The notes: generated by a model not told the origin, from the sequence alone. Counted from the first letter of the stretch, positions 9,245 through 28,001 are shown. The stretch: 32,000 nt of DNA from Staphylothermus hellenicus DSM 12710 (GCF_000092465.1 NC_014205.1:810001-842000), one strand, 5' to 3'. A program made the numbers and translations.

Positions 9245-10447
9245 CTATTTATTCTTCCCGCCTCTGATCATTTCATAGTACATATATGCTTTATTACGAG
9301 TATGCGGGTAGCCTAGTGATACTTGTTGCCACCCAATTATTTTATCGTTGCTCCACAGCTCTGCTTCCACCCCGCCATCATCTTCTCTTATATTAACTTT
9401 AAACCTGTATCCTAGTCTCTCCGCTTCTATTGGTGCTAAACCTATTGTTCTTATACTTATCTCGCCTATCTCCTCATATATCCTTGGTATTACTCCTAAG
9501 AACTCTTTTTCTTCGCCCACAATATTTGATGCAATTATTTCAGTATACTCTCCAGCAATGAATCCGAGTGGTCTATAAAGCGTTTTCCCGGATACATAGT
9601 CTTTTGATAAAGCACAGTCTCCTAATGCATACATGTCTCTATAGCCCTGGACTCTTCCATGATCATCTATTATTATTGCTCCACGCTGCATAGGTATATT
9701 TGTGTTCCTCAATAATTCCGTGTTTGGCCTGATACCTGTGGATAAAACTATGTGGTCTACACGTATTATTCCATGATCCGTTCTTAGAGCTTCTGCTCTA
9801 GAAGTACCCAGTACTTCTTCGACTCTTGTAGCCGTATATATTTTCACGCCTATTCCTCTCAGATATTCTTCAACATGTTTAGCCAAATCCTCTACTAGCA
9901 GTCCAGGGATCAAGCGATCCTTTATCTCTATTAGAGATACCTTATACCCTTTAAGCCTGAGAAGACCTGCAAGGCTACAACCTATGACCCCACCGCCTAT
10001 AATAGCGATCCTGCTGCCTCTTGGAAGACCCACTAGTCTCCAATAATCGTTTATGCTGTGATAAGTTGATACATTTGTTTTATCTAAGCCATTAATAGGG
10101 GGTATGAATGGTTTTCCGCCGAGGGCTAAGACTAGTTTATCGTAGCTAATAGTCTTTGATGAGCCAAGCTGATCAACTACTCTAACACTTCTCTCATCAA
10201 CCCTAACCTCTACTGCACGATGTTTTCTCAGAAACCTAACATTCCTGTCTAATAAATAATCTGTAACACCTATTATGAGTCCATCAGCGTTTCTTGCTCT
10301 TAGACAACTTATTAGTCTATGCCTAGAATATGGGGGCCACTCCTCCGATACAATTGTTATTTTCTCGCCTGGAACTCCTTTCCCTATAAGTTTGTAAGCA
10401 GTGTATAATCCAGCGATTCCTCCTCCGAGAATCAATATGTTATCCAT
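9245..10447 (-). CDS. FAD-dependent pyridine nucleotide-disulfide oxidoreductase family protein (ferredoxin/rubredoxin-NAD(P)+ reductase-like); putative AorC-like subunit
   Basis: Two dinucleotide-binding motifs are present: ILILGGGIAGLYTA (FAD) and IAIIGGGVIGCSLAG (NAD(P)). The GD motif is YALGDCA. It is 400 aa, on the same strand as the Fe-S gene and 24 nt downstream of it. Confidence 0.85.
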   Translation of the reverse strand: MDNILILGGGIAGLYTAYKLIGKGVPGEKITIVSEEWPPYSRHRLISCLRARNADGLIIGVTDYLLDRNVRFLRKHRAVEVRVDERSVRVVDQLGSSKTISYDKLVLALGGKPFIPPINGLDKTNVSTYHSINDYWRLVGLPRGSRIAIIGGGVIGCSLAGLLRLKGYKVSLIEIKDRLIPGLLVEDLAKHVEEYLRGIGVKIYTATRVEEVLGTSRAEALRTDHGIIRVDHIVLSTGIRPNTELLRNTNIPMQRGAIIIDDHGRVQGYRDMYALGDCALSKDYVSGKTLYRPLGFIAGEYTEIIASNIVGEEKEFLGVIPRIYEEIGEISIRTIGLAPIEAERLGYRFKVNIREDDGGVEAELWSNDKIIGWQQVSLGYPHTRNKAYMYYEMIRGGKNK

Positions 10448-10471
10448 TCTTACCAGGCCCTTAATGTGTCT

Positions 10472-10972
10472 TTAAGGCTTATAGATGTCTGTTATTCTCG
10501 ATAATTTCTTGATATATGATGTATTCTTATATGGTGTCTTCTCATATACGATAGCGTTTGTTGGACAAACCTTTACACACTCAGGATCACCGCCGCATAG
10601 ATCACATTTAACCACCTGTGCTCTCCTATTGATTATTATTGCTCCGAATGGGCAGGCATATACGCATTCATAGCAACCTATGCATTTATCATGGTTGATT
10701 ATGTATGCTCCTGTCTCAGGATTGTATGTTATAGCGTTTACTGGGCAAACCCTCATACATGGCGCGTCTTCGCACTGCATACAAGTTGTCGGAATAGATA
10801 CTGGTGATTCGGGTTGTGTCAATATTGTTATTCTTGACAAGGAAGGATTAATTATGTCTTCATGCTTTATAGAACATGCTAATTCGCATAAGTGGCAGCC
10901 TATGCATCTAGAATAATCTATTGCGAGGGTTTTATTCTTATGTTGAACAAGGATTTTTTGTAGTTCAGCCAT
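10472..10972 (-). CDS. Four-cluster [4Fe-4S] ferredoxin-like protein (DmsB/HybA-type); putative AorA-like electron-transfer subunit
   Basis: Four Cys motifs are present: CIGCHLCELAC, CMQCEDAPCMRVCP, CIGCYECVYACP and CDLCGGDPECVKVCP. It lies 27 nt downstream of the AOR gene. Confidence 0.9.
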   Translation of the reverse strand: MAELQKILVQHKNKTLAIDYSRCIGCHLCELACSIKHEDIINPSLSRITILTQPESPVSIPTTCMQCEDAPCMRVCPVNAITYNPETGAYIINHDKCIGCYECVYACPFGAIIINRRAQVVKCDLCGGDPECVKVCPTNAIVYEKTPYKNTSYIKKLSRITDIYKP

Positions 10973-10999
10973 GCCTCTTCACCTCTCCAATCTAATCCT

Positions 11000-12904
11000 T
11001 TATATATAGAGTGGGGGTCCATCCCACTCTGGATACTCCTTCTCCATATCCTCGATCACATAGTCTAATCCCAGCCTCTGCAACGTCTCCTTCTTTGGCA
11101 CACCAGTCTTTGGATCGCATCCTCTCCTCTCAAGGTATTCGTCAACCATCTTATTATGCTTCTCAAGCTCCTGCCTACCCTTCTCTGTATTCAAGATCTC
11201 TGGTGGTAGTGGGAGTCTGTAATGCTTCCTCTTAATCCCCTGCTTAACGTTGAAGGCTATTTCGAGAATATATATTCTCTCAGCAATAGTATTGATCATT
11301 TCCTCAGTAAACTCTATACCTGAAGCCGCTGTTAATACTTTAGCCAATCCCTTGAACAACGGCCATTTCCAGGATAGAGGTACGGCTTGTGGCCACAGAT
11401 TTATCGATCCCTTACATCTCCCAATACTGTCTGCCATAGCACATGCGTTCTCACTCACAATTACTGCTCCAACAGGGTCTTTACGGTAGTCTGGGAGACC
11501 ATTGCTCAGCAGCTTCTTCGGTAGCTCGGGATCCATGTTCCTATCATTCTCCCAGTAAGCCCAAGACCTTCCTCTTAAATGGTCTGCTCCGCGAGTTGAT
11601 GTTGCATGTGATAATGTGAATACCCCGTTTAGGAAGTCTACATGATACCATCCCCTGCCAAGACCCTTAACATCATATGAGTACTGCAATGCTTTATCGC
11701 CGAATAGCTTAGCAAAGTTACGGTATCCCTCAGCAAGCTTTGCTCCAAATCCTTTCCTATAAGCCATCATCTCCACTAGTTTAGCATATGTTTCCCCATC
11801 ACCCCATTGAAGCTTTATTCCACCGGTATCTTCATCAGTAATTATTCCTTTCTGGTACAGAAAAGTTGCCAGTGCAAGTGTGTCTCCAACAGTTATTACA
11901 TCCATACCGTACTCATCACACATGTGTTCAAGTTTGTAGAATGTTTCAGTATCAGTTATGCCCAGGTTTGTTCCTAGGGCGAATACTGATTCGAACTCTG
12001 TAGAGTATCCTTGAATCTCTTCTGTTCTATATACATCTTTGCATCCTATGGGGCAACTATAACAAGATGTCCTACCGATCTCGTATCTTGCTAGATCCTG
12101 TGGTCTAAGACCTACAGGTATCTCTTCTGGTCCAAGGTATTTCTCATAGTATTTCCATCCAGGATACCATTGCAGCATTCCATAATGTGTTCCGATCACC
12201 GAGTATATTTTCTTAATGAACTCATTTTTCTTAAAATACTCAATATCCATTTTTGCATACTCATATAGTTTCTCCGGATCATATACTTCTACACCCTTAG
12301 TTCCTCTCAACGCTATTGCTTTCAAATACTTAGATCCCCAGACAGCACCACTACCCCTAGCTCCTGAATGGAACTTGTCCACCATTGTTGAAGCAGGTCT
12401 TACAAGGTGTTCTCCGGCAGGACCAATTCCCGCCACAGTTATATCGTCTCCATGCTCATCACGTAATGCATCAACTGTTTCACCAAACGTGAGACCCCAT
12501 AAGTGCTCAGCACTCCTGATCTCTGCGTGGTCATCGTCTATCCAAACATATACTGGCTTACTGGCCTTACCAGTAATTATTATTTGATCATATCCTGCAT
12601 GCTTCATTTTAGCGGCAAAATCCCCTCCAGCATTACCATCTCCGAGAATCCCTGTTAGAGATGATAGTGTTGAAATATGTAGTCTACTAGTGAATGGCAT
12701 AACTGTTCCAGCCAATGCACCATTACCTAGTGCTATAATGTTTTCAGGACCCAAAGGATCTATTCCTGCAGGAACATACTTGTACAACATATAATCGTTT
12801 AAACCCCTACCACCAAGATATTGTACAGCGATCTCCCGCTCAAGCGGTTTCTTAACGATCTTCTCCCTCGACAGATCAACTATTAGAATAGTACCTCCCC
12901 ACAT
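11000..12904 (-). CDS. aor: Tungsten-containing aldehyde:ferredoxin oxidoreductase family protein
   Basis: The N-terminus MWGGTILIVDLS...YLGGRGL is typical of the AOR family. The [4Fe-4S] ligands CYSCPIGC (CxxCxxxC) are present, and the length is about 634 aa. The track ORF starts at GTG 12934. ATG 12904 is more plausible. Confidence 0.9.
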   Translation of the reverse strand: MWGGTILIVDLSREKIVKKPLEREIAVQYLGGRGLNDYMLYKYVPAGIDPLGPENIIALGNGALAGTVMPFTSRLHISTLSSLTGILGDGNAGGDFAAKMKHAGYDQIIITGKASKPVYVWIDDDHAEIRSAEHLWGLTFGETVDALRDEHGDDITVAGIGPAGEHLVRPASTMVDKFHSGARGSGAVWGSKYLKAIALRGTKGVEVYDPEKLYEYAKMDIEYFKKNEFIKKIYSVIGTHYGMLQWYPGWKYYEKYLGPEEIPVGLRPQDLARYEIGRTSCYSCPIGCKDVYRTEEIQGYSTEFESVFALGTNLGITDTETFYKLEHMCDEYGMDVITVGDTLALATFLYQKGIITDEDTGGIKLQWGDGETYAKLVEMMAYRKGFGAKLAEGYRNFAKLFGDKALQYSYDVKGLGRGWYHVDFLNGVFTLSHATSTRGADHLRGRSWAYWENDRNMDPELPKKLLSNGLPDYRKDPVGAVIVSENACAMADSIGRCKGSINLWPQAVPLSWKWPLFKGLAKVLTAASGIEFTEEMINTIAERIYILEIAFNVKQGIKRKHYRLPLPPEILNTEKGRQELEKHNKMVDEYLERRGCDPKTGVPKKETLQRLGLDYVIEDMEKEYPEWDGPPLYI

Positions 12905-13434
12905 ATACAGCCTCGACAACCAACACCACACCACTTAATAGTTTTTAGATTAGATTAGAAATATGTATCTTGATAAAATAAAAACTTTATACCAGCATAG
13001 TCATCACAGCATCTACCCCTATCATTTGATTATAGTATCTTAAACAAGGAGATCAATCAAAAAACCGGATGCATACGTGGTTGCTTCAACATATGGAGCC
13101 GTGGAAGCTATTATGCATGTATTAAAGGAGAGCGGCATTGTTAGATTACTCTTTAAACATTGATCTTAAGAGAAAATGGTTTGAGAAGGATGAGCTCGGT
13201 GTTCATTATGCACGCTTAGACTGTGAGAATAGTGTCTATGGCGGGGAAGTCTGATAAACCACTTCTTGAAACACTGGTTACTAGAAGGCTTAGATCTAGG
13301 GGTATTATGGAAGTCGTTGTAGACATATAAGGATTGAAGAAATGGATATAGCTTATTCTAGTCTAGAGGATAGTGTTATACTATATTTTAAGACTAGAGA
13401 TTATATGAGAATATGTAGGGGCGACTACGTTGTT

Positions 13435-14058
13435 CTAGGCATAGTTCCTCTTCCAGCCTGTATTATAGGAGGTAAGGTATCTAGAGTAGATAGGAACGGG
13501 TTTGTATGGGTCATTATCAAGAAATTGTATAGGATGCCTAGAAGACATAGCTATAATCAATGGCCTATCGTATATACCAATATACCTTCTAAGACCGTCA
13601 ATACAGTATCTAGATCCTTTAAAGCACTTTAAAAATTTCTTAGGAAACCATAGATCCAGTAGCTTGAGCTTACCAGCTGAAGCAATATTACCTATCACTA
13701 TAGACAGCATTATTGATATGTCGAAGCCGAAGTTCCTCCATGGAAATGCTATAGACAATATAAACTTCCTAATATTAATATCTCCAGGGATCTCAAACTC
13801 GTAGTCGGGGATCTTATATAACCCTATAACTTTTGCTGCATACCTCCTCCTCATTTCAGGGGTTTCAGCAGAAACCCTAATCCATGTGCCAATGAGTTCC
13901 TCTAGAGCTATTACATGTGCTACAGTATCTGGATCAAGATTCCTAGGTATACTAACTAGGTAATGTGCTATAACATATTCTTCTGTACCAAGATCCTCTA
14001 TAAACAGATCTGTTAGATCATAATAACTTATTCTAGGAACCTTAGACAAACATCCCAC
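13435..14058 (-). pseudogene. rbcL: RuBisCO large-subunit-like gene (type III/RLP-like), truncated and decayed; only the N-domain and the start of the barrel remain
   Basis: The 207-aa ORF contains ALEELIGTW (compare AAESSTGTW) and SIVIGNIASAGKLKLLDLWFPKKFLKCFKGSRYCIDGLRRYIGIYDRPL. This aligns closely with my memory of Thermococcus RbcL (GNIFG...LRLEDLYFPEKLIREFDGPAFGIEGVRKMLEIKDRPI). The KPK(V/L)G catalytic-Lys segment is deleted, KDDE reads DNDP, and a stop falls about 240 aa short of full length. Confidence 0.55.
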
Positions 14059-14307: not shown

Positions 14308-15966
14308 ATGTATACATACAGGCTTAAAGCTATAAGCAAAACTGCTTGGACAATAATAATCATATTCCTAATAATAATTGGTGCTGTAGCTGTATGGTAT
14401 TCGAGTACTTGGGGAAAACCTGCTGAGACCGCCACGACCACTACGTCATCTCCCACCACATCATCTACTACGTCATTACCTGCAACCACTTCTGCAACAT
14501 CACCTGCGGTTAAACAAATTGTTATTGGTGTAACGGATAAGGTTACAGATCTTGATCCGTCAAATGCGTATGACTTCTTTACATGGGAAGTACTAAACAA
14601 TATTATGGAGGGTCTTGTAAAGTATAAGCCTGGCACACTCGATATAGTGCCAGGCCTCGCCGAGAGCTGGGAGGTAAGTGATGACAGTAAGACATGGACA
14701 TTCCATCTTAGAAGCGGGTTAAAATTTGCTGATGGAACACCATTAACTGCCCAAGATGTTGTTAGAAGTATAAATAGGGTTATGAGGATAAATGGTGATC
14801 CAGCATGGCTTGTGACATCATTTGTTGAAAGCGTTGAGGCACCAGATAACCTAACTGTTGTATTCCATCTAAAACAGCCAACAGCATACTTCCTAGCACT
14901 ACTAGCAACCCCACCATACTTCCCTGTTCACCCAGCTTATAAGCCTGACGAGATAGACTCTGACCAGACAGCTGGCGGTGCAGGACCATATAAGATCACT
15001 AAGTTTATTAGAGATGATGTATTAGTGCTTGAAACTAATCCATACTACTATGGTGATAAACCTAAGACAAGCAAGATTGTTATAAAGTTCTTTAGAGACG
15101 CTACATCGCTAAGACTTGCCATAGAGAATGGTGAAATAGATATTGCATGGAGAACTCTTAGGCCAACTGATATAGATTACTTCAAGAAAGCATCTGGCTA
15201 TAAGGTTATAGAGGTTCCAGGCTCCTTTATAAGATATATATGTATAAACACTAAGATGTCTCCAGTAGACAATAAGCTTGTAAGACAAGCACTTGCAGCT
15301 GCAATTAATAGGCAGGATATAATAGATACTGTACTACTTGGTGCAGGCGAGCCCCTCTACAGCTTAGTCCCAAATGGTATGTGGAGCCATATAGATGTGT
15401 TTAAGGAGAAATATGGTAATGCAAACATAGATCTAGCTAAACAGCTTCTGCAGAAAGCAGGGTATAGTGAAGAAAACAAGCTCCACATAGAACTATGGTA
15501 TACTCCAACACACTATGGCGATACTGAAGCAGATATTGCACAGGTTATTAAGGAGCAGTGGGAAGCAACAGGTATGATCACCGTGGATATTAAGAGTGCT
15601 GAATGGGGTACCTACGTCGACTATATAAGGAACAACCAGTTAATGGTTTATCTACTAGGATGGTATCCAGACTATCTTGATCCAGACGACTATCTAACAC
15701 CATTCCTCCACAGTGAATCAAACTCATGGGCAGGAACACAGTATGCAAATGCTACAGTGGATCAATTGCTTGTCAAGGCTCAAACTATAACTGATCAGAA
15801 TCAGAGAGCCCAGTTATATAAACAAGTACAGGAGATCTTTGCTGAAGACGTGCCATATATACCTATATTCCAGGGTAAACTCTATATTATTGCTAGAGAA
15901 GGTGTTGAAGGTATAATACCAAACCCCACAATGCTACTGCTATACTCAACAATCTACAAGTCTTGA
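14308..15966 (+). CDS. ABC transporter substrate-binding protein, family 5 (Opp/Dpp-type), membrane-anchored through an N-terminal TM helix and a Thr/Ser-rich linker
   Basis: 552-aa ORF. The TM helix is TAWTIIIIFLIIIGAVAVWY and the linker is TATTTTSSPTTSSTTSLPATTSATSP. The SBP_bac_5-like core includes LDPSNAYDFFTWEVLNNIMEGLVKY and GWYPDYLDPDDYL. Confidence 0.9.
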   Translation: MYTYRLKAISKTAWTIIIIFLIIIGAVAVWYSSTWGKPAETATTTTSSPTTSSTTSLPATTSATSPAVKQIVIGVTDKVTDLDPSNAYDFFTWEVLNNIMEGLVKYKPGTLDIVPGLAESWEVSDDSKTWTFHLRSGLKFADGTPLTAQDVVRSINRVMRINGDPAWLVTSFVESVEAPDNLTVVFHLKQPTAYFLALLATPPYFPVHPAYKPDEIDSDQTAGGAGPYKITKFIRDDVLVLETNPYYYGDKPKTSKIVIKFFRDATSLRLAIENGEIDIAWRTLRPTDIDYFKKASGYKVIEVPGSFIRYICINTKMSPVDNKLVRQALAAAINRQDIIDTVLLGAGEPLYSLVPNGMWSHIDVFKEKYGNANIDLAKQLLQKAGYSEENKLHIELWYTPTHYGDTEADIAQVIKEQWEATGMITVDIKSAEWGTYVDYIRNNQLMVYLLGWYPDYLDPDDYLTPFLHSESNSWAGTQYANATVDQLLVKAQTITDQNQRAQLYKQVQEIFAEDVPYIPIFQGKLYIIAREGVEGIIPNPTMLLLYSTIYKS

Positions 15967-16000
15967 AAATATTAAAAATCCTAGTTTAAAATAAAACAAC

Positions 16001-16008
16001 TATTTTTT
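16001..16008 (+). terminator. Oligo-T tract (tatttttt) after the binding-protein gene; possible partial terminator
   Basis: The T6 run lies 35 nt after stop 15966, in a 98-nt intergenic gap ahead of the permease genes. Archaeal RNA polymerase terminates at oligo-T. Confidence 0.3.
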
Positions 16009-16050
16009 AAAAATCTTTATACTTCCTATAACCTTGAAAAAGGATTGCTT

Positions 16051-16060
16051 AGGAGGAGGT
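16051..16060 (+). promoter_or_regulatory. Shine-Dalgarno box AGGAGGAGGT, 4 nt upstream of the GTG start of the permease gene
   Basis: Read directly as ttAGGAGGAGGTtggtGTG. Confidence 0.5.
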
Positions 16061-16064
16061 TGGT

Positions 16065-17087
16065 GTGGCAGCTAGAGGCCTTGGCTACTATGTATTGATA
16101 AGAGCACTTCTAATAATACCCACAATACTGATCCTCTATACCATTGTCTTTATACTTCTCCGAATACTTCCAGGAAACCCTATCTTAGCAGTTGTTGGTA
16201 CAAGGAATATTCCTGAGGAGCAGCTTCAGCATCTAATGCATATGGCCGGCCTCGATAAACCATTATATATTCAGTACTTTGACTACCTATGGAGGGTGTT
16301 GCATGGAGATTTTGGTGTAACACTCGCCATACCCCAGGGTACACCTGTTATAGACTATATTATGTTAAGGTTCCCAGCAACTCTGGAGCTTACAATATTT
16401 GGTTTTACAATAAGTGTACTATTAGGGTTGCTAACAGGTGTTGTGGGAGCTGTAAAAAGGGGTACCATTATTGACTCCTCTATGAGGCTCTATAGTATAA
16501 TAGCATATACATTATTTATTCCATGGTTTGGCTTAATGCTTCAATACTTATTCGGTGTAGTATTAGGGATACTGCCGACATCTGGGAGACTAGATCCAGG
16601 GCTGCATCTTGAAACCCCTACCGGGCTCTATGTACTAGACAGTATTATTACCGGTAACTGGGCTGCTTTAAGAAGCGCACTAGCCCATCTAGTACTACCA
16701 AGTATTACACTTGGTATTGTCCTTAGTGGTGCATATACAAGGCTTGTAAGAAACAACATGATTGATGTACTTAGCCAGGACTTCATTAGATCATATCATG
16801 CAAGAGGTGTTAAGGGATGGAAGGTTACATGGTATGCGTTAAAGAATGCCTTCATACCCATTGTAACATTGATGGGGCTACAGTTTGCAATCCTCCTCGG
16901 AGGAGCAGTATTAACTGAGACAACCTTTAGCTGGCCAGGTATGGGGACATTCATTGTTGATAGGCTCGAGTACAGAGACTACGCTTCCATCCAGGGAGCC
17001 ATAATATTCTTCGCCATATTTGTAAGCATTATAAGCTTGATTGTTGACATAATCTATGCACTCCTTGATCCTAGAGTGAAGTATTAG
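16065..17087 (+). CDS. ABC transporter permease (OppB/DppB-type)
   Basis: 340 aa and polytopic. It has a BPD_transp_1-type EAA region (SQDFIRSYHARGVKGWKVTWYALKNAF) and the N-terminal motif LPGNPI. Confidence 0.9.
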   Translation: MAARGLGYYVLIRALLIIPTILILYTIVFILLRILPGNPILAVVGTRNIPEEQLQHLMHMAGLDKPLYIQYFDYLWRVLHGDFGVTLAIPQGTPVIDYIMLRFPATLELTIFGFTISVLLGLLTGVVGAVKRGTIIDSSMRLYSIIAYTLFIPWFGLMLQYLFGVVLGILPTSGRLDPGLHLETPTGLYVLDSIITGNWAALRSALAHLVLPSITLGIVLSGAYTRLVRNNMIDVLSQDFIRSYHARGVKGWKVTWYALKNAFIPIVTLMGLQFAILLGGAVLTETTFSWPGMGTFIVDRLEYRDYASIQGAIIFFAIFVSIISLIVDIIYALLDPRVKY

Positions 17088-17088
17088 C

Positions 17089-17976
17089 ATGGTGATAGCT
17101 GTGAGTGCTAGGAGGATAAAAATAAGAACACTTGCATCAACTATATTCTCCCCCCTCCTCACTAAAGCACCCGGTGCTTGGATGCTTAGAATAGGGGTTG
17201 GGATTGTCTTAGCTGTAACATTAATGGCTATACTAGCCCCAATTATATCACCATATAATCCTGAAAAGAGAGTGGACAAACCATTTATCCCCCCTAGCTG
17301 GGAGCATCCAATGGGCACTAATAGGATTGGCCAGGACCTATTCTCAAGGATCATATGGGGTTCAAGAATTGTATTAGGTGTCGTATTTCTTGCAACACTA
17401 TTGTGTATGTCTATAGGCATACCACTAGGATTAATTTCGGGATACTACGGAGGAAAACTGGATAGAACTTTAAGCATGTTTATGGATAGCATGTATGCTT
17501 TCCCAGCATTGATCCTTGCAATAGCTATTGCAGCTGTACTGGGCCCGAGTCCAACTAATACAGCCATAGCTATAGCCTTCGTCTATATACCAACATATTT
17601 TAGAATGATACGAGGGCAGACGCTTGGTTTGAAAAGCCAGTTATTTGTTGAAGCGGCTAGGGCTCTTGGTGCAAATGATAGAGTAGTTATGAAGGACTAT
17701 ATATTGCCAAACCTAGGACATACTATACTGGTTGTATTTTCACTAAGCGTGGCTGATGCTATATTGACTGAGGCAGGGCTGAGTTACTTAGGGTTATCGG
17801 TTACACCGCCTACACCAGATTGGGGCTATGATCTGAGGGTTGGACAGCCATTCCTACTTGATGGTAAGTGGTGGCTAGTATTCTTCCCCGGACTCATGGT
17901 TATGTTGCTTGCGATGGGTTTTGCATTAATAGGTGAAGCACTAAGTGAGAGAATATCACTTGCTCAGACAAGGTGA
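17089..17976 (+). CDS. ABC transporter permease (OppC/DppC-type)
   Basis: 295 aa. It contains HPMGTNRIGQDLFSRIIWGSR (OppC N-terminal motif) and the EAA loop FVEAARALGANDRVVMKDYILPN. The start is 1 nt after the upstream stop. Confidence 0.9.
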   Translation: MVIAVSARRIKIRTLASTIFSPLLTKAPGAWMLRIGVGIVLAVTLMAILAPIISPYNPEKRVDKPFIPPSWEHPMGTNRIGQDLFSRIIWGSRIVLGVVFLATLLCMSIGIPLGLISGYYGGKLDRTLSMFMDSMYAFPALILAIAIAAVLGPSPTNTAIAIAFVYIPTYFRMIRGQTLGLKSQLFVEAARALGANDRVVMKDYILPNLGHTILVVFSLSVADAILTEAGLSYLGLSVTPPTPDWGYDLRVGQPFLLDGKWWLVFFPGLMVMLLAMGFALIGEALSERISLAQTR

Positions 17977-17982
17977 TATGCT

Positions 17983-18939
17983 GTGGCATTAATTAGTATA
18001 AGGAATCTATCAATACACTACTACACCCTCTCAGGTATAGTGCATGCAGTAGATAATGTAAGCTTTGACATTCTTGAAGGGGAATGGATAAGTATTGTGG
18101 GTGAGTCAGGCAGCGGTAAATCAACCCTGGCATATTCTATAATAGGACTTGTCCCTCCCCCGGGAAGAATAGTTACGGGTGAAATATTGTTTAATGGAAG
18201 AAATCTTGTAAAACTCTCTAGGGAGGAGATGAGGAGGATCAGGGGAAAGGATATTGGTATGGTCTTCCAAGACCCTATGACAAGCCTTGACCCATTAAGA
18301 AGAGTTGGAGACCAGATTGCAGAAGTATTTATAGAACACGGAGTTTTATCAAGTTGGAAAGAAGCTAGGGAGAGAGCTAGAGAGCTTTTAAAAAAGGTTG
18401 GTCTGCCAGGGGATAGAGCAAGTTATTATCCCCACCAATTATCTGGTGGTCAGAGGCAGAGGATAGCCATAGCTATTGCAATGGCTCTTAAACCAAAACT
18501 CTTAATTGCAGATGAACCCACCACAGCTCTAGATGTTATTGTCCAGGATACCATAATGGATCTCATGGAAGGCTTTAAGAAACAGGGTACGAGCATATTA
18601 TTCATAACTCATGACCTAGCTCTAGCTGCTGAGCATAGTGATAGGATAGCAGTAATGTATGCTGGTAAGCTTGTAGAACTTGGCAGTGTAGACCAGGTTA
18701 TAGATAATCCATTACACCCATATACGATAGCATTAATTAAGAGCGTACCTGATCTATGGGGTGAGAAGAAGATAAAGTCTATCCCAGGCTATCTCCCAGA
18801 TCTAAGGAATCCTCCGAGGGGGTGCAGGTTTCATCCAAGATGCCCATTCGCCAGAGATATTTGTAGGAGGGAGGAGCCGGAGATCATTGAGGTTGAAAAA
18901 GGCCATATCGCTTCCTGTCATTTGCTTAAGAAGAGGTGA
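17983..18939 (+). CDS. ABC transporter ATP-binding protein (OppD/DppD-type)
   Basis: Walker A GESGSGKS, signature LSGGQRQR, Walker B LLIADEPTTALD and H-loop ITHD are present. A C-terminal oligopeptide-type extension carries CRFHPRCPFA. Confidence 0.9.
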   Translation: MALISIRNLSIHYYTLSGIVHAVDNVSFDILEGEWISIVGESGSGKSTLAYSIIGLVPPPGRIVTGEILFNGRNLVKLSREEMRRIRGKDIGMVFQDPMTSLDPLRRVGDQIAEVFIEHGVLSSWKEARERARELLKKVGLPGDRASYYPHQLSGGQRQRIAIAIAMALKPKLLIADEPTTALDVIVQDTIMDLMEGFKKQGTSILFITHDLALAAEHSDRIAVMYAGKLVELGSVDQVIDNPLHPYTIALIKSVPDLWGEKKIKSIPGYLPDLRNPPRGCRFHPRCPFARDICRREEPEIIEVEKGHIASCHLLKKR

Positions 18940-19934
18940 TTTATATGGCGTTGCTTGAAGTAAGGAATCTAAAGAAGTATTTTCCCGTGCAGCGAAGCCT
19001 ATTAGAAATATTATCCTCTAGGGAGAGAAAGTATGTTAAAGCAGTTGATGGAATAAGCTTCTCTATAGAGAAGGGTGAGACTCTAGCACTTATAGGAGAA
19101 TCTGGTTGTGGCAAGACAACTACTGGCAGGCTTATACTAAGACTTATCGAGCCTACATCTGGGAGCATACTGTTCGATGGGAAAGATATAGTAAAACTGC
19201 GTAAAAAAGAGCTTAGACAACTAAGGCGTAGAATGCAGATGATATTCCAGGATCCATATGCAAGTCTTAATCCTAGAATGAAAATAGGCAATGCAATAGC
19301 TCATCCACTCCTCATCCACAACCTTGCTACAAGGAAGGAGGCTAGAGAGATCGCGTTAAAAATGCTTAGGAGAGTGGGATTAACACCCGAGAAAGAATTC
19401 TATGACCGCCTCCCCCACCAATTATCTGGTGGTCAGAGGCAGAGAGTAGTTATTGCTAGAGCCATGGTTCTTAAACCAGAGTTTGTTGTAGCTGATGAAC
19501 CAGTATCAATGATTGATGTATCAATGAGAGCATCAATACTCGATCTACTACAAGAGTTTAAGAAAGAATATGGTCTAACAATGCTATTCATAACCCATGA
19601 CATAGCTATTGGGAGGATTATAGCTGATAAACTAGCAGTAATGTATCTGGGAAAAATAGTTGAATTAGGCCCTGTAGATAAAGTAATTAATAACCCACTC
19701 CACCCCTATACCCTAGCATTGATCGAGTCTGTACCCTCTATTAGGAGAAGGAAGAGAGCTAGGAGGATAAAAATAACAGGTGAAGTACCAAACCCTATAA
19801 ACCCACCTAGTGGATGCCGCTTCCACCCAAGATGCCCATTTGCAACCAAGAAATGCAGTAGTGAGGAACCAAAACTCATTGAGGTAGAACCACAACACTA
19901 CGTTGCATGTTTTAACCCATTGATAAAACACTAA
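18936..19934 (+). CDS. ABC transporter ATP-binding protein (OppF/DppF-type)
   Basis: Walker A GESGCGKTT, signature LSGGQRQR, Walker B VVADEPVSMID, ITHD and a C-terminal CRFHPRCPFA are present. ATG 18945, preceded by aagaGGTGA, is a more likely start than GTG 18936. Confidence 0.9.
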   Translation: MIYMALLEVRNLKKYFPVQRSLLEILSSRERKYVKAVDGISFSIEKGETLALIGESGCGKTTTGRLILRLIEPTSGSILFDGKDIVKLRKKELRQLRRRMQMIFQDPYASLNPRMKIGNAIAHPLLIHNLATRKEAREIALKMLRRVGLTPEKEFYDRLPHQLSGGQRQRVVIARAMVLKPEFVVADEPVSMIDVSMRASILDLLQEFKKEYGLTMLFITHDIAIGRIIADKLAVMYLGKIVELGPVDKVINNPLHPYTLALIESVPSIRRRKRARRIKITGEVPNPINPPSGCRFHPRCPFATKKCSSEEPKLIEVEPQHYVACFNPLIKH

Positions 19935-20922: not shown

Positions 20923-22293
20923 ATGACCATTTATCCTATAATTTCCATCAAAGATTTCGGGCCATTCAAACAAGCCAGCCTAGAGCTTAAACCACTAACC
21001 CTGCTCATAGGCAGGAACAGTGTAGGTAAATCCATGCTAGCATACTTAGTCTGGATCCTAGCCTCACTAATACCTGATCCCGAGATTATAGGAGAAATAG
21101 CTGTGGAGAAGGGTGTGGATAGGCTAGCTACTGAGACAATTAGTGAGATTAGAAAGGGAGGGAATGTATCTGATAAAATTAAGAACCTGCTCAAGATACA
21201 TATCGATGCATTACCAGAAGCTATATCTGTAAGTCTTAAAGAATCACTTCAGAGAACCTTTACAACAAACTTAGAAGAACTGATCAGGAAAGGAGCCAGT
21301 CAGGCCATAATAGGCGTTGAAGCCTTAAGGTCTTCTCTAAAATTTGCAATAGAGGATAATGAGGTTAAGGTCATAGATCATAAACCCTACATGGAATTCT
21401 TCGAAAAACTGAGAATAAGCGTTCCAAGACCACGTATATTAAGGGTAACCTATGTGGAGAAAGGGCAGGAGAAAAAGATATATGAGGATATAGCTGACAG
21501 CATCGCTGATCTAGTTAAGGCCACATTCAACATGTTTATGAGCTATGTCGTGGAGGCTTTTTACCCCTTATTTTCAGCCACGCTTGCAGCTCTCCTCCCC
21601 GATAGTCGTGCTGGAATTGCTAGGACTCTGCTTAAGCCATATACTCAGCCAGCAATAGCTAAGAAGGTATCATATGCGGATGAAGAGTTCATCAGCTTAT
21701 ATTTTAGACTCGCAGAAATGGTTGAGAGGGGTCTTATAGATTTGGATATGGTGAAGCCTCTGTTCAAGGAGCTGAGCTGTACTCCTGAAGTAGTATTTGA
21801 GCGTGGTGTTTATACAGTTTATATTAATACATGGACTGGTAAGCGTTTACCATTGGCTCAAGCACCCTCAGGTGTGAGAGAGTCTTTAACTGTAGCATTA
21901 GCTCTTGCATCGAGGAAAGAACCATACATTGTCATTGTTGAGGAGCCTGAAGCTCATCTACACCCACGTGCTCAGAGGGTTTTAGCAAGACTCATCGCCC
22001 GATCCATTAATAGTTTACGTAAACATGTCGTTATTACGACTCACAGCGACTACATACTATATGTCCTGAACAACTTGATAACACTCTCACATGATCTTAT
22101 CAAAGCCGAGAAGCTGGGTTATCGGAGAGATGAAGTGTTAAAGCCCGATATGGTTTCAGCATATTTGGTGAGAGCTGAGGATGGGAAAGCTGTTTTGGAT
22201 CGATTAGAGGTAGGTGATGAAGGCATCTCTGAGGATGAGTTCGTAAAAGTGGCTGAAGAGCTTGCTGAGGAGAGGTCTAAAATACTAGCTTAG
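20923..22293 (+). CDS. ABC-type ATPase of the AAA_15/AAA_21 (OLD/PtuA/AriA-like) class, with no fused nuclease domain recognised
   Basis: 456 aa. Walker A is GRNSVGKS (aa 30-37). A largely helical insert of about 280 aa follows. Then come the signature-like QAPSGVRESL, Walker B YIVIVEEPEAHLHP (aa 335-348) and THSDYIL (aa 372-378), followed by a C-terminal tail of about 80 aa. Confidence 0.85.
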   Translation: MTIYPIISIKDFGPFKQASLELKPLTLLIGRNSVGKSMLAYLVWILASLIPDPEIIGEIAVEKGVDRLATETISEIRKGGNVSDKIKNLLKIHIDALPEAISVSLKESLQRTFTTNLEELIRKGASQAIIGVEALRSSLKFAIEDNEVKVIDHKPYMEFFEKLRISVPRPRILRVTYVEKGQEKKIYEDIADSIADLVKATFNMFMSYVVEAFYPLFSATLAALLPDSRAGIARTLLKPYTQPAIAKKVSYADEEFISLYFRLAEMVERGLIDLDMVKPLFKELSCTPEVVFERGVYTVYINTWTGKRLPLAQAPSGVRESLTVALALASRKEPYIVIVEEPEAHLHPRAQRVLARLIARSINSLRKHVVITTHSDYILYVLNNLITLSHDLIKAEKLGYRRDEVLKPDMVSAYLVRAEDGKAVLDRLEVGDEGISEDEFVKVAEELAEERSKILA

Positions 22294-23592: not shown

Positions 23593-24252
23593 TTATTTCT
23601 TTTTGAGTGTTGTTTTTTCTAATAGGTATTCTTTGTTGGAGATATATTTTGTGTATAGGTCTGTTGTTGTTATCAGTATTCCTGCATGGTTGTTTTCCAC
23701 ATAGTTTTTTAGAAGCATCATGATCTGATGCATTGTTTCCTCGTCTAGGTTTGAGAATGGTTCGTCAGCTATTATTAGCTTTGGTTTCTTAACTAGTGCT
23801 CTTGCTATTGCTGCTCTCTGCTTTTGCCCACCGCTTATTTGGAGGGGATACTTATCTCTGACATTGTAGATGCCTAGTTGTTTAATTAGGTTTAAAGCTT
23901 CATTTTCGGCTTCCTGCTTCTTCCATCCCATGAGTCGTAGTGGTAGTATTATATTATCTAGTACTGTGAGGTTGGGTAGGAGTTTATAGTATTGATCAAT
24001 ATAGCCTATATGTTTAAGTCTCAGCATTGATCTCTCATGATCTCTTAATTTTGTAATTTTTCTCCCCACAAACATTATTTCTCCACTAGAGGGTTTAAGG
24101 AGGAGAGCAGAGATCATTGCCAGTGTTGTTTTCCCAACACCACTCCTCCCACGAACCACAACGTTCTCTTTCTCTTCTATGGAGAGATATATGTTTCTAA
24201 GTATATGCTCTGACCCCCTTGTGAAACATATGTTTCTAAGCTCGATGATCAA
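23593..24252 (-). CDS. ABC transporter ATP-binding protein (MacB/LolD/FtsE-type) with a non-canonical H-loop
   Basis: Walker A GRSGVGKTT, Q-loop YIDQYY, signature ISGGQKQR and Walker B LIIADEPFSNLD are present. The H-loop position reads ILITTTD (Thr 197) where THD is expected. Confidence 0.9.
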   Translation of the reverse strand: MIIELRNICFTRGSEHILRNIYLSIEEKENVVVRGRSGVGKTTLAMISALLLKPSSGEIMFVGRKITKLRDHERSMLRLKHIGYIDQYYKLLPNLTVLDNIILPLRLMGWKKQEAENEALNLIKQLGIYNVRDKYPLQISGGQKQRAAIARALVKKPKLIIADEPFSNLDEETMHQIMMLLKNYVENNHAGILITTTDLYTKYISNKEYLLEKTTLKKK

Positions 24253-25838
24253 TATTTGCCACCGTAGAGATAAGCTTGTACATAATGGTTATCATATAAT
24301 CTATTATATGCTCCTCTATTGAATATGGAGTCTATACTGTAATAATTTAGGTAAACCATGCATCCTGCAAAGTAGTTTTCATAGTATATTATAAATAATT
24401 GATTATTATCTGGGCTCTTATTATAATACAATGTTTTCAATAACAGGCTTGAATCAATGTTTTTAACCATGATCCCGTAGAAAACAATCTTTGTATCCCC
24501 ACTAATTTTTAGATCATCCCCTGCATAGGTAAAGACTGTGTCGAAGCCTCTTGTCTCACCTATAGGGTAATACCATGTATATGAGACTCCATCTCTATAG
24601 CTCACTATATTAACTATAACAATTGATCCAGGCAGTAATGTAGCTAAAACCATAAATACTGCGAGTGATTTCTTCAACGAGGATCTTTTCTGCCACATAT
24701 AAGCCACTATAATAGCCATTATAAACACTATATAATTTATAAACCTGTGAATTATGCTTGAGAAAAATGGTGCACCAAATAATACATATATAATATTATA
24801 TAGGATAAATAACCCCATACCATCCACTAACAAATTAACCATCTCATCACCCACTACAACAATAAAGGGAATAGATAAAGCCATAGGCAACACATACCAG
24901 AATAAGCGAGAACCAAGTATGCTTACACCAGGCAATACCCTTGCAAGATCCGGGGAAAACATCAAGAATAATATAGTGAATATCGAGATTATTATGGGAA
25001 CAAGTAATTGATTAGATCTCTTTTCCGCAAATACTAGGTAGCCGCCGTAGAGAACTAATCCATACAGTATATATGTTAATATGTTGCCGGGAGAAGCAGA
25101 GATTTTCAAACTAGCAGAGCCGTATGTGAAATAATATGATAAGAAGACTCCAACAATAACTACTATGATCAGAGAGGCTTTAAGCATGTGAAGCGGGGAA
25201 ACAAGGTTCTTACCCCATAAATGATAGGCTATTGATACAAAAACAAATCCTAGCAGAAACCCTGCCAGCATAAATGTTGCTAGGTGATGGGATAATACAA
25301 GACCCATGGATAAAACACTTAATGCTACAAGATCTCTTCCCATGAGAACCCCGTTGATAAGTGTTCTAAGAGCAAAAATTGTTATAGCGAAGAATAATGG
25401 GTAAGCATATGTTTCCTTCAATGGGCTTGAAGTAAATACTAAGTATGAAGGCGTATATCCTAGGATAAGTATTGCTAATGCACATGCGCTTATACTATAA
25501 AATCTCCTAATGACAGTGTAGAATAATAGAAGTAGTCCAAGACTTAAAATAATAGTGTAAATGTACATGTAAACTATTCTCAAAGATATACCTGTGACCC
25601 ATGTATATATTGTTGTTGAAAGAATTATTCCAGGCCAGTGATTATTGTATCCATCAAAGAACTTATCATCCCATATCTTAGCATCAGGCTTCCCCAATAG
25701 AATCTTGGCATCTCTGTAGAGGGGCCAAACATCTGTTGAGAAAAGATTATTGGAAATATATGCTGGAATAACATGGATTATTGTTGAAAGAGTAAATACT
25801 ACAATGAGAAATATTGTTGCTTTATTATTGTTCACCAT
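24249..25838 (-). CDS. Polytopic membrane protein (12 or more predicted TM helices) with a C-terminal soluble domain; possible GT-C-fold glycosyltransferase
   Basis: 529-aa ORF, hydrophobic over about 420 aa. The first loop, FSTDVWPLYRDAKILLG, resembles the acidic first-loop motif of PMT_2/ArnT-like GT-C enzymes. The C-terminal 110 aa are beta-rich and soluble. It has 4-nt and 14-nt overlaps with flanking operon genes. The function call is weak. Confidence 0.7.
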   Translation of the reverse strand: MVNNNKATIFLIVVFTLSTIIHVIPAYISNNLFSTDVWPLYRDAKILLGKPDAKIWDDKFFDGYNNHWPGIILSTTIYTWVTGISLRIVYMYIYTIILSLGLLLLFYTVIRRFYSISACALAILILGYTPSYLVFTSSPLKETYAYPLFFAITIFALRTLINGVLMGRDLVALSVLSMGLVLSHHLATFMLAGFLLGFVFVSIAYHLWGKNLVSPLHMLKASLIIVVIVGVFLSYYFTYGSASLKISASPGNILTYILYGLVLYGGYLVFAEKRSNQLLVPIIISIFTILFLMFSPDLARVLPGVSILGSRLFWYVLPMALSIPFIVVVGDEMVNLLVDGMGLFILYNIIYVLFGAPFFSSIIHRFINYIVFIMAIIVAYMWQKRSSLKKSLAVFMVLATLLPGSIVIVNIVSYRDGVSYTWYYPIGETRGFDTVFTYAGDDLKISGDTKIVFYGIMVKNIDSSLLLKTLYYNKSPDNNQLFIIYYENYFAGCMVYLNYYSIDSIFNRGAYNRLYDNHYVQAYLYGGKY

Positions 25839-26985
25839 ATATCTTCACCGACCATATACCAGCAATGATCAATGCAGCATTTATTATGAGAGAATAAACC
25901 AAGAATTCCCCATCAAATACTAGGCTCCTCTCATAGCCTAAGATATTAAATCTGATAAGAGGAAACAATGCTTCTGAAACAATAGCAACTACCAAACCTG
26001 CTAGGGAGAGATAGAGGAGTGTATATAGTGTAATAAATAATTTTATCTTATAAGCTGGCAATCCCTGCTCGTAAAGTATGGTTAACCTGTCAAGATCATG
26101 TGTGATAAGTGATTGACCCAAGAAATAGAATCCTAAGCTCAATAGAAGGGTGATCGCCAATAATAATGCGAATAATAAGTTTCTGCTGAGACCCAGCCTG
26201 GACAAGAACATGTTTCCGAGATTTTCATATGTTCTCGCACTAATCTCTCCACCACTATATCTGAGTGCAAGCAATGCTTTCTCGAGTAGGCTCGTCTTGG
26301 AGGCTGGGATATTGAATAGTTCAGCCACTCTATACATGTCTTCGCGGTTGTTTAGGAATACTATGGCTATCGAAGCAGTATTGGGGCCTGAGCCACGTAT
26401 AGTTCTAGCTGTGTCAAGAGTTGTTAAGAACTCATATCTTAGGGGACCCTCTGTATTGATTATTCCCTTAACAACTAGTATGTGGTCTGAGGATGTGAAT
26501 GGTGAATAAACAATTATTGTATCATTAACACTTATTCCAAGCCTCTGAGCAAGAGATATGCCAACCCATACACAATTAGTACAATTATCATTGAATCCTC
26601 CGCCTATAAACTCGTATTCTCCAGCAACTACTCGGAGATCATTTCTTCTAAGCCCTCGGATAATAATGTTTGAGGAATCATACCTTACAATTGCTAAGAC
26701 CTCATAGACTGTTCTATTAACGCCCCCAACTTTTATAAGCTTATCCTCAATCTTTCCAGTATCGAATATTGATGTGAATGGTGCTAGTGAATAGGAGGAT
26801 AAGACTATATAGTGTGGGGTTATGGATTGTTTAGGATACACTATATAGTCTGGCAGAGTATATGTGGAGTCTATGAATCCTTCATTGATCAATATAGTTG
26901 ATAAGAACAATGTGGCGGTAACTAGTACGAGCAAATACCTGTTAAAACTCAGTATTCGCCAAACACACAATATACTGCTTATCAA
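25825..26985 (-). CDS. ABC transporter permease, FtsX/MacB-type (extracytoplasmic domain plus FtsX 4-TM module)
   Basis: An N-terminal TM helix is followed by a large ectodomain with VWVGISLAQRLGISVNDTIIVYSP (MacB_PCD-like). The C-terminal FtsX-like helices include LTILYEQGLPAYKIKL. Confidence 0.8.
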   Translation of the reverse strand: MISSILCVWRILSFNRYLLVLVTATLFLSTILINEGFIDSTYTLPDYIVYPKQSITPHYIVLSSYSLAPFTSIFDTGKIEDKLIKVGGVNRTVYEVLAIVRYDSSNIIIRGLRRNDLRVVAGEYEFIGGGFNDNCTNCVWVGISLAQRLGISVNDTIIVYSPFTSSDHILVVKGIINTEGPLRYEFLTTLDTARTIRGSGPNTASIAIVFLNNREDMYRVAELFNIPASKTSLLEKALLALRYSGGEISARTYENLGNMFLSRLGLSRNLLFALLLAITLLLSLGFYFLGQSLITHDLDRLTILYEQGLPAYKIKLFITLYTLLYLSLAGLVVAIVSEALFPLIRFNILGYERSLVFDGEFLVYSLIINAALIIAGIWSVKIYGEQ

Positions 26986-28001
26986 TCCTTACCACCAATC
27001 TTATTCAGTGCCAACATAATTGAGGCAACGGATACTAGAGCATAAACAACCGTAATGGTAAACATGCTACTCATGCTTGGCAGAGGCCTAATAGTAATAA
27101 TTATTCCAAAGAATCTTAGAATATAAAATGATAGATGCATAAATAATACTCCTAAACCAATACCGTAAACTATCATCAATAAACCCGCCACAGATAGAAC
27201 TATGCCCAATGCTAGCCTAGTCTTCCCCCATGAAACACCCAGGCTATGTAGAACGTCTAGATCACCATGTACCATGTTAATTGCTCTTCTATATCCGAGA
27301 TACATTATTGGAAAATATGTTAGTGCTACGAGATATGTGAAACCATATGTGTATGATGAAATATAATTTGTGAGCTGATTTAGGAACGAATTAATTTCTG
27401 AACCACTATTTATCCTACACACCCAGTAAAGCTTTCCAGACCCTTTCCTCCAAAACACTTCTCTGCTTGTTAAGACTATTATGGATGAAGAATATAATCC
27501 CCTGCCACCATGTATATATCCCACCTTATAGCTTCTGCATTCACCATCTACACAAATACTTATATTGGAGCCAAGCTTTACTCCCAGCCTCTGAGAAACA
27601 AAGCTGCTTATTGAAACTATTTCTGAAGCATTATTATTAAATAAGCATTTATGGGGATAATGATCTATATTTTCCACATAGTCTTCTCTATCCATATAGA
27701 TTATCTCTATATTCAACGACCTGTTCCCAACAATTATTTTCCCAGCATGAACACGTATACCTATACATTCACCCATGTTATTGCTACTATTATATGGGAG
27801 TATTATAAGAGAAGATCTCCCCTCCATGAAGCTAAGCATTTGCTGAGAATGCATACTGAGAGTAGGGGGTATGAGGCTGTAAGCAGTTGATATAGCTACG
27901 GGGATAGATAAGATGATCAGGAATAATAATAAGGTATTTCTTCTCATGACAATGAGAAATAGAGTCTTGAACAAGGTGTTTCGCTGCAATTTTTCATTCA
28001 T
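26982..28001 (-). CDS. ABC transporter permease, FtsX/MacB-type (second, divergent paralogue)
   Basis: An N-terminal TM helix is followed by an ectodomain with VSQRLGVKLGSNISICVDG. The FtsX-like C-terminus reads LDVLHSLGVSWGKTRLALGIVLSVAGLLMIVYGIGLG. It has a 4-nt overlap with the next permease gene. Confidence 0.75.
   Translation of the reverse strand: MNEKLQRNTLFKTLFLIVMRRNTLLLFLIILSIPVAISTAYSLIPPTLSMHSQQMLSFMEGRSSLIILPYNSSNNMGECIGIRVHAGKIIVGNRSLNIEIIYMDREDYVENIDHYPHKCLFNNNASEIVSISSFVSQRLGVKLGSNISICVDGECRSYKVGYIHGGRGLYSSSIIVLTSREVFWRKGSGKLYWVCRINSGSEINSFLNQLTNYISSYTYGFTYLVALTYFPIMYLGYRRAINMVHGDLDVLHSLGVSWGKTRLALGIVLSVAGLLMIVYGIGLGVLFMHLSFYILRFFGIIITIRPLPSMSSMFTITVVYALVSVASIMLALNKIGGKD

Follow-up and report, generated by a model that had tools for sequence, protein, structure and literature searches.

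The only NAD-linked, three-subunit tungsten aldehyde oxidoreductase (AOR) to have been characterized, AorABC, comes from a mesophilic bacterium. Recent surveys regard the AorABC type within its clade, clade 87, as confined to bacteria, and treat the AORs of archaea as ferredoxin-linked and made of a single subunit. Here we report a cluster of three genes in the hyperthermophilic archaeon Staphylothermus hellenicus DSM 12710, on a stretch of 32,000 nucleotides (NC_014205.1:810001-842000; hereafter the window, in whose coordinates positions are given). The genes encode a catalytic subunit of the AOR/WOR family, a polyferredoxin and a flavoprotein, for which we use the subunit names WorL, WorS and WorN. 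Together they probably form one operon for a heteromeric, pterin-dependent and most likely tungsten-dependent aldehyde oxidoreductase of the WorL-WorS-WorN type, linked to NAD+.

All three open reading frames (ORFs) lie on the minus strand, co-directional, intact and full length, and the ORF list agrees with the 27-nt and 24-nt gaps between them that were described in an original prediction made from this DNA. WorL (11000-12934; 644 aa when read from a GTG) matches the Pfam families AFOR_N (PF02730, E 5e-68) and AFOR_C (PF01314, E 6e-83), as expected of a subunit binding a pterin cofactor and one [4Fe-4S] cluster, and its translation contains the anticipated GGRG and CxxCxxxC motifs, the latter formed by C291, C294 and C298, with C507 in addition. 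WorS (10472-10972; 166 aa) matches Pfam Fer4 dicluster families and has 16 cysteines arranged in the four complete [4Fe-4S] motifs that had been predicted (C23/26/29/33, C64/67/72/76, C97/100/103/107 and C123/126/132/136). WorN (9245-10447; 400 aa) is an FAD/NAD(H) flavoprotein with the two-dinucleotide-binding-domain fold of Pyr_redox_2 (PF07992, E 2e-49), and the two Rossmann motifs proposed for it were found as GxGxxG at residues 8-13 and 151-156.

The spacing and signals between the genes are consistent with joint transcription. The 27-nt WorL-WorS spacer (10973-10999, minus strand) carries a GGAGAGGTGA Shine-Dalgarno element, with a strong GGTGA at 10979-10983, 6 nt before the WorS ATG at 10972; it is too short for a separate promoter and so fits an operon-internal WorS gene. 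A Shine-Dalgarno element directly before the start is typical of operon-internal genes in Crenarchaeota. Only a weak, GGT Shine-Dalgarno-like element was seen in the 24-nt WorS-WorN spacer (10448-10471, minus strand). Upstream of WorL, reading of the sequence points to a candidate promoter (12935-12990, minus strand) with A/T-rich, TATA-like elements at 12972-12990 and 12936-12950. The true start of WorL is probably the ATG at 12904, which would give a protein of 634 aa, since the homologues begin there (consensus of the 16-member clade described below) and a GAGG lies 6 nt upstream.

Four-gene relatives and the polyferredoxin subunit

Relatives of WorL were collected by scanning one genome per species, which gave 80 loci that were screened for partner genes and placed in a tree. 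WorL groups, with full support, in a clade of 16 Desulfurococcales and Thermococcus sequences that share ≥60% identity, and an iron-sulfur (FeS) gene directly follows the AOR gene in every member of this hyperthermophile clade with enough sequence. Among 16 informative relatives, 14 share a longer arrangement, in which the AOR gene and a first polyferredoxin gene (FeS1) are followed by a second, different polyferredoxin gene (FeS2) and then by a flavoprotein gene. The 14 (L012-L016, L018-L022, L091, L093, G037 and locus L108 of the cultured Thermococcus profundus, CP014862) were drawn from metagenome-assembled genomes (MAGs) of Desulfurococcales, a Thermococcus MAG, the complete T. profundus genome and G037. 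Because this gene neighbourhood recurs in 14 of the 16 relatives, the WorL-WorS-WorN arrangement is not by chance, and the three genes named in the original prediction are indeed co-conserved in these relatives, with the FAD gene placed after the FeS gene or genes.

The four-gene clusters (T. profundus L108 and MAG loci L091, L093 and L012-L022) contain true orthologues of the genes studied here, in the same order and on the same strand. Their identities to the window's genes are 65-85% for WorL, 58-76% for the FeS1 body and 39-60% for the FAD subunit, the closest relative being L091, whose WorL is 85% identical. They differ in having two separate polyferredoxin genes, whereas S. hellenicus has one 166-aa hybrid, and some of them carry an upstream MoaD/ThiS-like gene and an Fe-type alcohol dehydrogenase.

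The two polyferredoxins of the relatives are readily told apart, as FeS1 measures 188-202 aa and ends in a C-terminal extension of ~55 residues, FeS2 measures 150-158 aa, and the two are only about 35-40% identical. When WorS is compared with both proteins of L091, its affinity shifts along its length: residues 16-120 are identical to FeS1 at 88 of 105 positions and to FeS2 at 38 of 105, residues 121-135 match either protein at 14 of 15, and residues 136-165 agree with FeS1 at 10 of 30 and with FeS2 at 19 of 30. The last 26 residues (141-166; 10472-10552, minus strand), derived from FeS2, give a local alignment score of 86 with the FeS2 tail of L091, which 0 of 2000 shuffles reached (shuffle maximum 42), and a score of 44 with that of L093 (p 0.0005). 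None of the FeS1 tails aligned to these residues clearly above shuffles (best p 0.04).

By these comparisons WorS is an in-frame chimera, in which the body of FeS1 is joined to the tail of FeS2 from an ancestral four-gene cluster. The probable crossover segment comprises residues 121-140 (10553-10612, minus strand), with the KCDLCGGDPECVKVCPTNA motif of the fourth cluster, and is near-identical in both ancestral FeS genes. Since all deeper branches have both FeS1 and FeS2, the simplest reading is that the hybrid arose by in-frame deletion, through recombination between the tandem FeS paralogues at this shared motif. What the deletion removed was the tail of FeS1 together with the body of FeS2, and the 16 cysteines all survived; as the fusion falls exactly in frame inside the shared motif, a complete fourth cluster site was kept. 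The AorABC-like, three-gene appearance of this locus is thus secondary, derived from four genes.

Among solved structures, the best match of WorS is AorA (8c0z_C, E 6e-38; residues 14-146 against 37-170), and other top matches are WorS 9mqx_E and the small subunit of WOR5 (E 1e-31); its nearest solved relatives are the small subunits of AorABC, WorABCSL and WOR5. AorA is known to stack into filaments through its C-terminal helix (PMC10413684). The WorS tail after the last cluster motif, at ~20 residues, is near this helix in length, and is not aligned to it; the AF2 model of WorS (predicted local distance difference test, pLDDT, of 50) is too poor for judging a tail helix or for a fold search.

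Descent of the subunits and comparison with AorABC

WorL is distant from every solved member of its family. In a search of PDB sequences its best match was Pyrococcus furiosus AOR (PfAOR, 1aor; 294 bits), followed by the A. mobile WorL (279 bits), FOR (236 bits), AorB (8c0z_A; 231 bits), BamB (193 bits) and WOR5 (182 bits). The same genome contains three further AOR-family genes: one paralogue (L005) is an AOR sensu stricto of clade 87, scoring 669 bits to PfAOR and 554 bits to AorB, the second is an orthologue of FOR (797 bits), and the third is a more distant paralogue. There were no FeS or FAD neighbours beside the two of these paralogues that were inspected. WorL itself lies outside the AorB/PfAOR clade (clade 87), as its 231 and 294 bits compare with 554 and 669 for L005 and as it forms a separate clade in the tree. 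Placement of the catalytic subunit as the counterpart of AorB by descent is therefore not upheld.

The sister clade of the WorL clade (97% support, 45-53% identity) includes sequences from Methanosarcinales, Hadarchaeota, Chloroflexota, Desulfovibrionales and other groups, and almost every one is a stand-alone gene. The hyperthermophile clade is an uncharacterized one, with no member characterized or solved. We also observed, in Bacillota and Actinomycetota MAGs (L031:3547-9613, L034 and L035), a two-headed S-L-L'-N arrangement of an FeS gene, two AOR genes and an AorC-type flavoprotein gene; the first head of the L031 type is 34-36% identical to WorL and the second 49-51%, and the second belongs to the otherwise stand-alone sister clade.

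The catalytic residues and cluster ligands of WorL are conserved. The cluster cysteines 291, 294, 298 and 507 and the catalytic residues are invariant across the 16 clade members, and alignment to PfAOR shows that the pterin-binding DxxGxC segment is kept. Four residues typical of aldehyde-oxidizing members, T243, E313, Y427 and H448 in PfAOR numbering (PMC13328260), are all conserved, as T249, E315, Y430 and H452. PfAOR and WOR5 share with WorL the catalytic fold, cofactor ligands, catalytic residues and hyperthermophilic archaeal setting, and the small subunit of WOR5 is homologous to WorS. WorL is only ~30% identical to either. PfAOR differs in being a ferredoxin-linked, Fe-bridged homodimer, whose bridge ligand E332 is replaced by K334 in WorL, and WOR5 differs in having no flavoprotein.

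The flavoprotein, too, has its own descent. The AF2 model of WorN is confident (pLDDT 88.8) and keeps both dinucleotide folds, and Foldseek aligned it at template-modelling scores of 0.87-0.92 to NADH oxidases (Nox), NADH peroxidase, CoA-disulfide reductases (CoADR) and persulfide reductases, and ferredoxin-NAD+ reductases. Its best solved sequence match is the Nox/CoADR protein 6ruz (147 bits, E 1e-41), and AorC ranks fifth among its PDB matches (97 bits). The bacterial flavoprotein of L031, which has AorC as its first match (166 bits), is only 25% identical to WorN. On this evidence WorN represents a small archaeal lineage nearer to Nox and CoA-disulfide reductases than to AorC.

WorN has the three-domain fold of Nox, NADH peroxidase, CoADR and persulfide reductases (6RUZ, 6PFZ, 4FX9), of BphA4 and of putidaredoxin reductase. 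It differs from Nox/CoADR in that the catalytic cysteine is replaced, the position being a histidine in the alignment to 6ruz, and in that its gene is confined to AOR-FeS neighbourhoods; across the WorN orthologue alignment, no redox-active cysteine of the N-terminal SxxxC(G)LPY-type segment of Nox/CoADR is conserved. An EWPPYSRHRL segment and E174 are instead invariant in 11 orthologues. The PYSR part of this segment resembles the L031 flavoprotein and ferredoxin reductases, consistent with the ferredoxin-reductase type ascribed to the protein beforehand. E174 closes the second Rossmann beta-strand, where an acidic residue favours NAD(H) over NADP(H), and its invariance therefore makes WorN likely to be of the NAD(H) type.

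The WorN family is small: hydrothermal Desulfurococcales and Thermococcus contribute ~30 clusters at ≥37% identity, after which identity drops to 32%. At that level lies the nearest outgroup (P0154, 427 aa), encoded on a metagenome contig (L109:5001-8681) convergent to an AOR gene (623 aa) and an FeS gene (171 aa), so that the wider flavoprotein lineage may also be WOR-associated. The flavoprotein evolves faster than WorL and WorS in every lineage pair, and the window's copy is not exceptional. Relaxed constraint on WorN after the fusion was considered and rejected, since its divergence from L091 (60%) fits the rate ratio of the three subunits in other pairs. A second FeS-flavoprotein pair was noticed elsewhere in the genome (L008:5138-6870, corresponding to G000:C1:1357137-1358869 on the minus strand), comprising a 172-aa polyferredoxin 38% identical to WorS and a 394-aa Pyr_redox_2 flavoprotein, with a Zn-dependent alcohol dehydrogenase close by and no AOR gene nearby. 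Kinship between WorN and this flavoprotein was also rejected, the two being unrelated by comparison.

In the 2026 WOR classification of Putumbaka et al., enzymes of the WorL-WorS-WorN type form Class III, of which only AorABC is characterized and for which clades 13, 67 and 87 are listed in Table 1 (PMC13328260). By gene content the S. hellenicus locus belongs to Class III: it has a two-domain WorL, an adjacent four-cluster WorS and an adjacent FAD/NAD(P)-binding WorN, and the four conserved residues and four cluster cysteines of WorL are those of an aldehyde-oxidizing AOR/WOR. AorABC of Aromatoleum aromaticum EbN1 (PDB 8C0Z, “type N”; PMC6365974, PMC10413684, PMC13328260) likewise combines a W-pterin subunit bearing one [4Fe-4S] cluster, a small subunit carrying four [4Fe-4S] clusters, plus a ~400-aa FAD/NAD flavoprotein, which shares the PYSR-type motif with WorN and, like it, is without a redox cysteine. 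The gene orders differ, being S-L-N in the bacterium (aorA-aorB-aorC) and L-S-N here. The maturation genes aorD and aorE follow in the bacterium (PMC6365974), whereas no aorD- or aorE-like genes adjoin the archaeal cluster; the bacterial host is mesophilic and the archaeal one hyperthermophilic; and the ancestral form here has two polyferredoxins. The resemblance to bacterial AorABC put forward in the original prediction is thus sound for the subunit layout, with AorA as the best solved relative of WorS, and does not extend to descent, catalytic clade, AorC orthology or gene order. The cluster is not an orthologue of AorABC, and we suggest that it was assembled in parallel from different gene lineages.

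That such a cluster would be unusual for archaea, as was also supposed, is well supported by the literature (PMC6365974, PMC12318220). Arndt et al. (2019) judged the AORs of the archaeal branch all to be homodimeric from their operons (PMC6365974), and Feng et al. (2025) found N-type and bifurcating WORs of clade 87 only in Bacteria (PMC12318220). We found no report of an archaeal L-S-N or L-S-S'-N cluster in the literature, although full supplementary tables, beyond the reach of the search, may list these genes as Class III. The non-AorABC ancestry of the parts, the four-gene ancestral form and the chimeric FeS subunit go beyond the earlier idea.

Proposed function and its alternatives

The most likely function suggested by these features is NAD+-linked aldehyde oxidation. 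At its W-bis-pterin site, WorL would oxidize to the acid an aldehyde that probably stems from the breakdown of amino acids or 2-ketoacids in a peptide-fermenting hyperthermophile. Electrons would then pass from the WorL [4Fe-4S] cluster through the four WorS clusters to the FAD of WorN, which would reduce NAD+; in the four-gene relatives the corresponding wire would consist of eight clusters. The FeS1 body presumably docks on WorL, and the FeS2 tail may contact WorN or a neighbouring WorS. Gene linkage suggests that WorN and WorS associate physically; a complex prediction for the pair scored 0.17 and 0.23, the mark being 0.32, and was counted neither towards binding nor as an argument against it. 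That NAD+ accepts the electrons and that the substrate is an aldehyde are predictions from sequence features; tungsten is the likely metal, which no feature of the sequence tells apart from molybdenum.

The direction of the reaction can also be considered. The acid/aldehyde couple lies near or below the potential of ferredoxin (PMC13328260), so that aldehyde oxidation with NAD+ would be strongly downhill and acid reduction driven by NADH is implausible in vivo. The reversible operation that had been entertained for this enzyme is hence unlikely on thermodynamic grounds.

Several observations weigh against a single NAD+-linked complex. Two close relatives, L011 and L023, have only AOR and FeS1 genes, which implies that the FAD module is dispensable. 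The NurA/HerA genes that flank L011 (952-6395) are found in L093 (1435-8549) behind the flavoprotein gene, and the FeS2-FAD pair of L011 has evidently been deleted, apparently converting L-S-S'-N to L-S. The nearest WorL outgroup, being mostly stand-alone, indicates that the lineage can work without S and N. A TATA-like hexamer, TATAAG, lies within the 3' end of WorS, so that an internal promoter and separate transcription of WorN are possible. WorN is nearer to Nox/CoADR than to AorC, the one characterized WorN. No MoaD/ThiS-like maturation gene adjoins the cluster, unlike in L091 and L014; nor does the window contain a degraded MoaD/ThiS-like gene upstream of WorL, the only genomic match being far away. 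Finally, neither the FeS1 tail of ~55 residues nor the body of FeS2, both kept by the relatives, is present in the hybrid WorS, and the wiring here may be impaired.

Some of these points would suit a different partition of the same genes, in which a ferredoxin-dependent enzyme of two subunits (Class II, like WOR5/ASOR) is built from WorL and WorS and the flavoprotein acts separately, for example as an NADH:polyferredoxin or ferredoxin:NAD+ oxidoreductase or as an NADH oxidase. The retention of L and FeS1 without a FAD gene in L011 and L023, the proximity of WorN to Nox/CoADR in both sequence and fold, and the TATA-like element before its gene are all consistent with this arrangement, as is the existence of the L008 FeS-flavoprotein pair without an AOR gene nearby. 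We nevertheless regard it as unlikely, because the WorN family is essentially confined to the AOR-FeS gene context, WorN has no Nox/CoADR catalytic cysteine, its gene starts only 24 nt from WorS, and the L008 flavoprotein is unrelated to it.

Another explanation is that the cluster is a decaying remnant: the deletion that joined the two FeS genes would have interrupted the path of the electrons, and the genes would be heading to loss in a relic-rich, variable region. The lost FeS1 tail and FeS2 body, the missing upstream MoaD-like gene of the relatives, a RuBisCO N-domain relic in the neighbouring region and a surrounding block that has no counterpart in a same-genus genome would all be in keeping with decay. 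Yet each of the three ORFs runs its full length, no cluster cysteine or catalytic residue is missing, the fusion is in frame within the shared motif with the fourth cluster site complete, and the divergence of WorN matches that of other lineages, so that we consider decay very improbable. Least probable of all, by a little, is that the enzyme acts on another class of substrate, as WOR5/ASOR does on aliphatic sulfonates and BamB on benzoyl-CoA: the substrates of the family are diverse (PMC13328260), and the WorL clade has no characterized or solved member and a best PDB match of only 294 bits, but the four aldehyde-type residues (T243, E313, Y427 and H448 in PfAOR) are all conserved (PMC13328260), and WOR5 and BamB are the lowest-scoring solved members (182-193 bits).

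An NAD+-linked WorL-WorS-WorN enzyme remains the reading we prefer. A broader proposal, on which we are evenly divided, is that an NAD-linked tungsten aldehyde oxidoreductase was put together independently in hyperthermophilic archaea, among them some Desulfurococcales and Thermococcus, from a catalytic lineage that elsewhere stands alone, a wire of two polyferredoxins and a Nox-like flavoprotein without the cysteine, and that fusion in S. hellenicus minimized the wire to a single subunit of AorA size. If so, this would be the first Class III WOR from an archaeon and the first from roughly 85-90 °C, convergent with bacterial AorABC, and a thermostable enzyme with promise for acid/aldehyde biocatalysis coupled to NAD(H) or H2. 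Should the cluster function as proposed, the L-S-N architecture would have arisen more than once, from different gene lineages, and aldehyde oxidation would feed the NADH pool of a hyperthermophile and not the ferredoxin pool alone. The four-gene, eight-cluster wire of T. profundus and others and the fused three-gene, four-cluster wire described here would offer a natural comparison, from which one could learn what segments of the polyferredoxins bind to the catalytic subunit and what segments to the flavoprotein. Such a thermostable enzyme would also be relevant to AOR-based reduction of carboxylic acids.

Genomic setting

The complete genome (1,580,347 bp, 36.8% GC) has Staphylothermus and Desulfurococcaceae assemblies as its nearest named relatives. 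Neither WorL nor WorN is present in the complete genome of the same genus that was compared (G072), and a segment of ~21 kb around the cluster (window ~6655-28140) has no syntenic match there; its flanks match at 70-90% and lie ~3.6 kb apart in that genome. Of the 121 genomes sampled from the order, three, S. hellenicus itself included, gave a match (E ≤ 1e-40), and only the match in G037 (43% identity) looks orthologous, that in G034 being 30% identical. A further 400 genomes sampled from the phylum gave no orthologue-level match, their seven matches being 27-33% identical. Thermococcus copies of WorL nest among Desulfurococcales copies in the tree. This patchy occurrence and the mixed Thermococcus/Desulfurococcales tree indicate lateral spread among vent hyperthermophiles, and the cluster was probably gained by lateral transfer, in a variable region. 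Base composition was rejected as a test of transfer: the cluster, at 41.8% GC against 36.8%, falls in the top 2% of windows, and vertically inherited AOR paralogues are equally GC-rich.

The genes after the cluster are convergent and unrelated to it. In the neighbouring region, a 207-aa ORF (13435-14058, minus strand) resembles the RuBisCO large subunit in its N-terminal domain only, as a truncated paralogue or a relic would; the genome has a full-length RuBisCO gene (444 aa) at another site (G000:C1:1361786-1362673). Besides the AOR cluster and this relic, the block contains an Opp/Dpp-type ABC importer (14308-19934), an AAA_15 ATPase (20923-22293) and defence-like genes, and several ORFs at 24249-28001 match no Pfam family.

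In L091 (3888-5866 and 11250-11795) an Fe-type alcohol dehydrogenase gene and a 91-aa ThiS/MoaD-like gene precede the cluster and a gene of the phage integrase family follows it, and none of these flanking genes occurs in the window. In Thermococcus (L108:7245-8408 and L022:10181-11371) a co-directional ORF of 387-396 aa, absent from the window and matching no Pfam family, lies after the flavoprotein gene and may represent either an additional component or a gene unrelated to the cluster.

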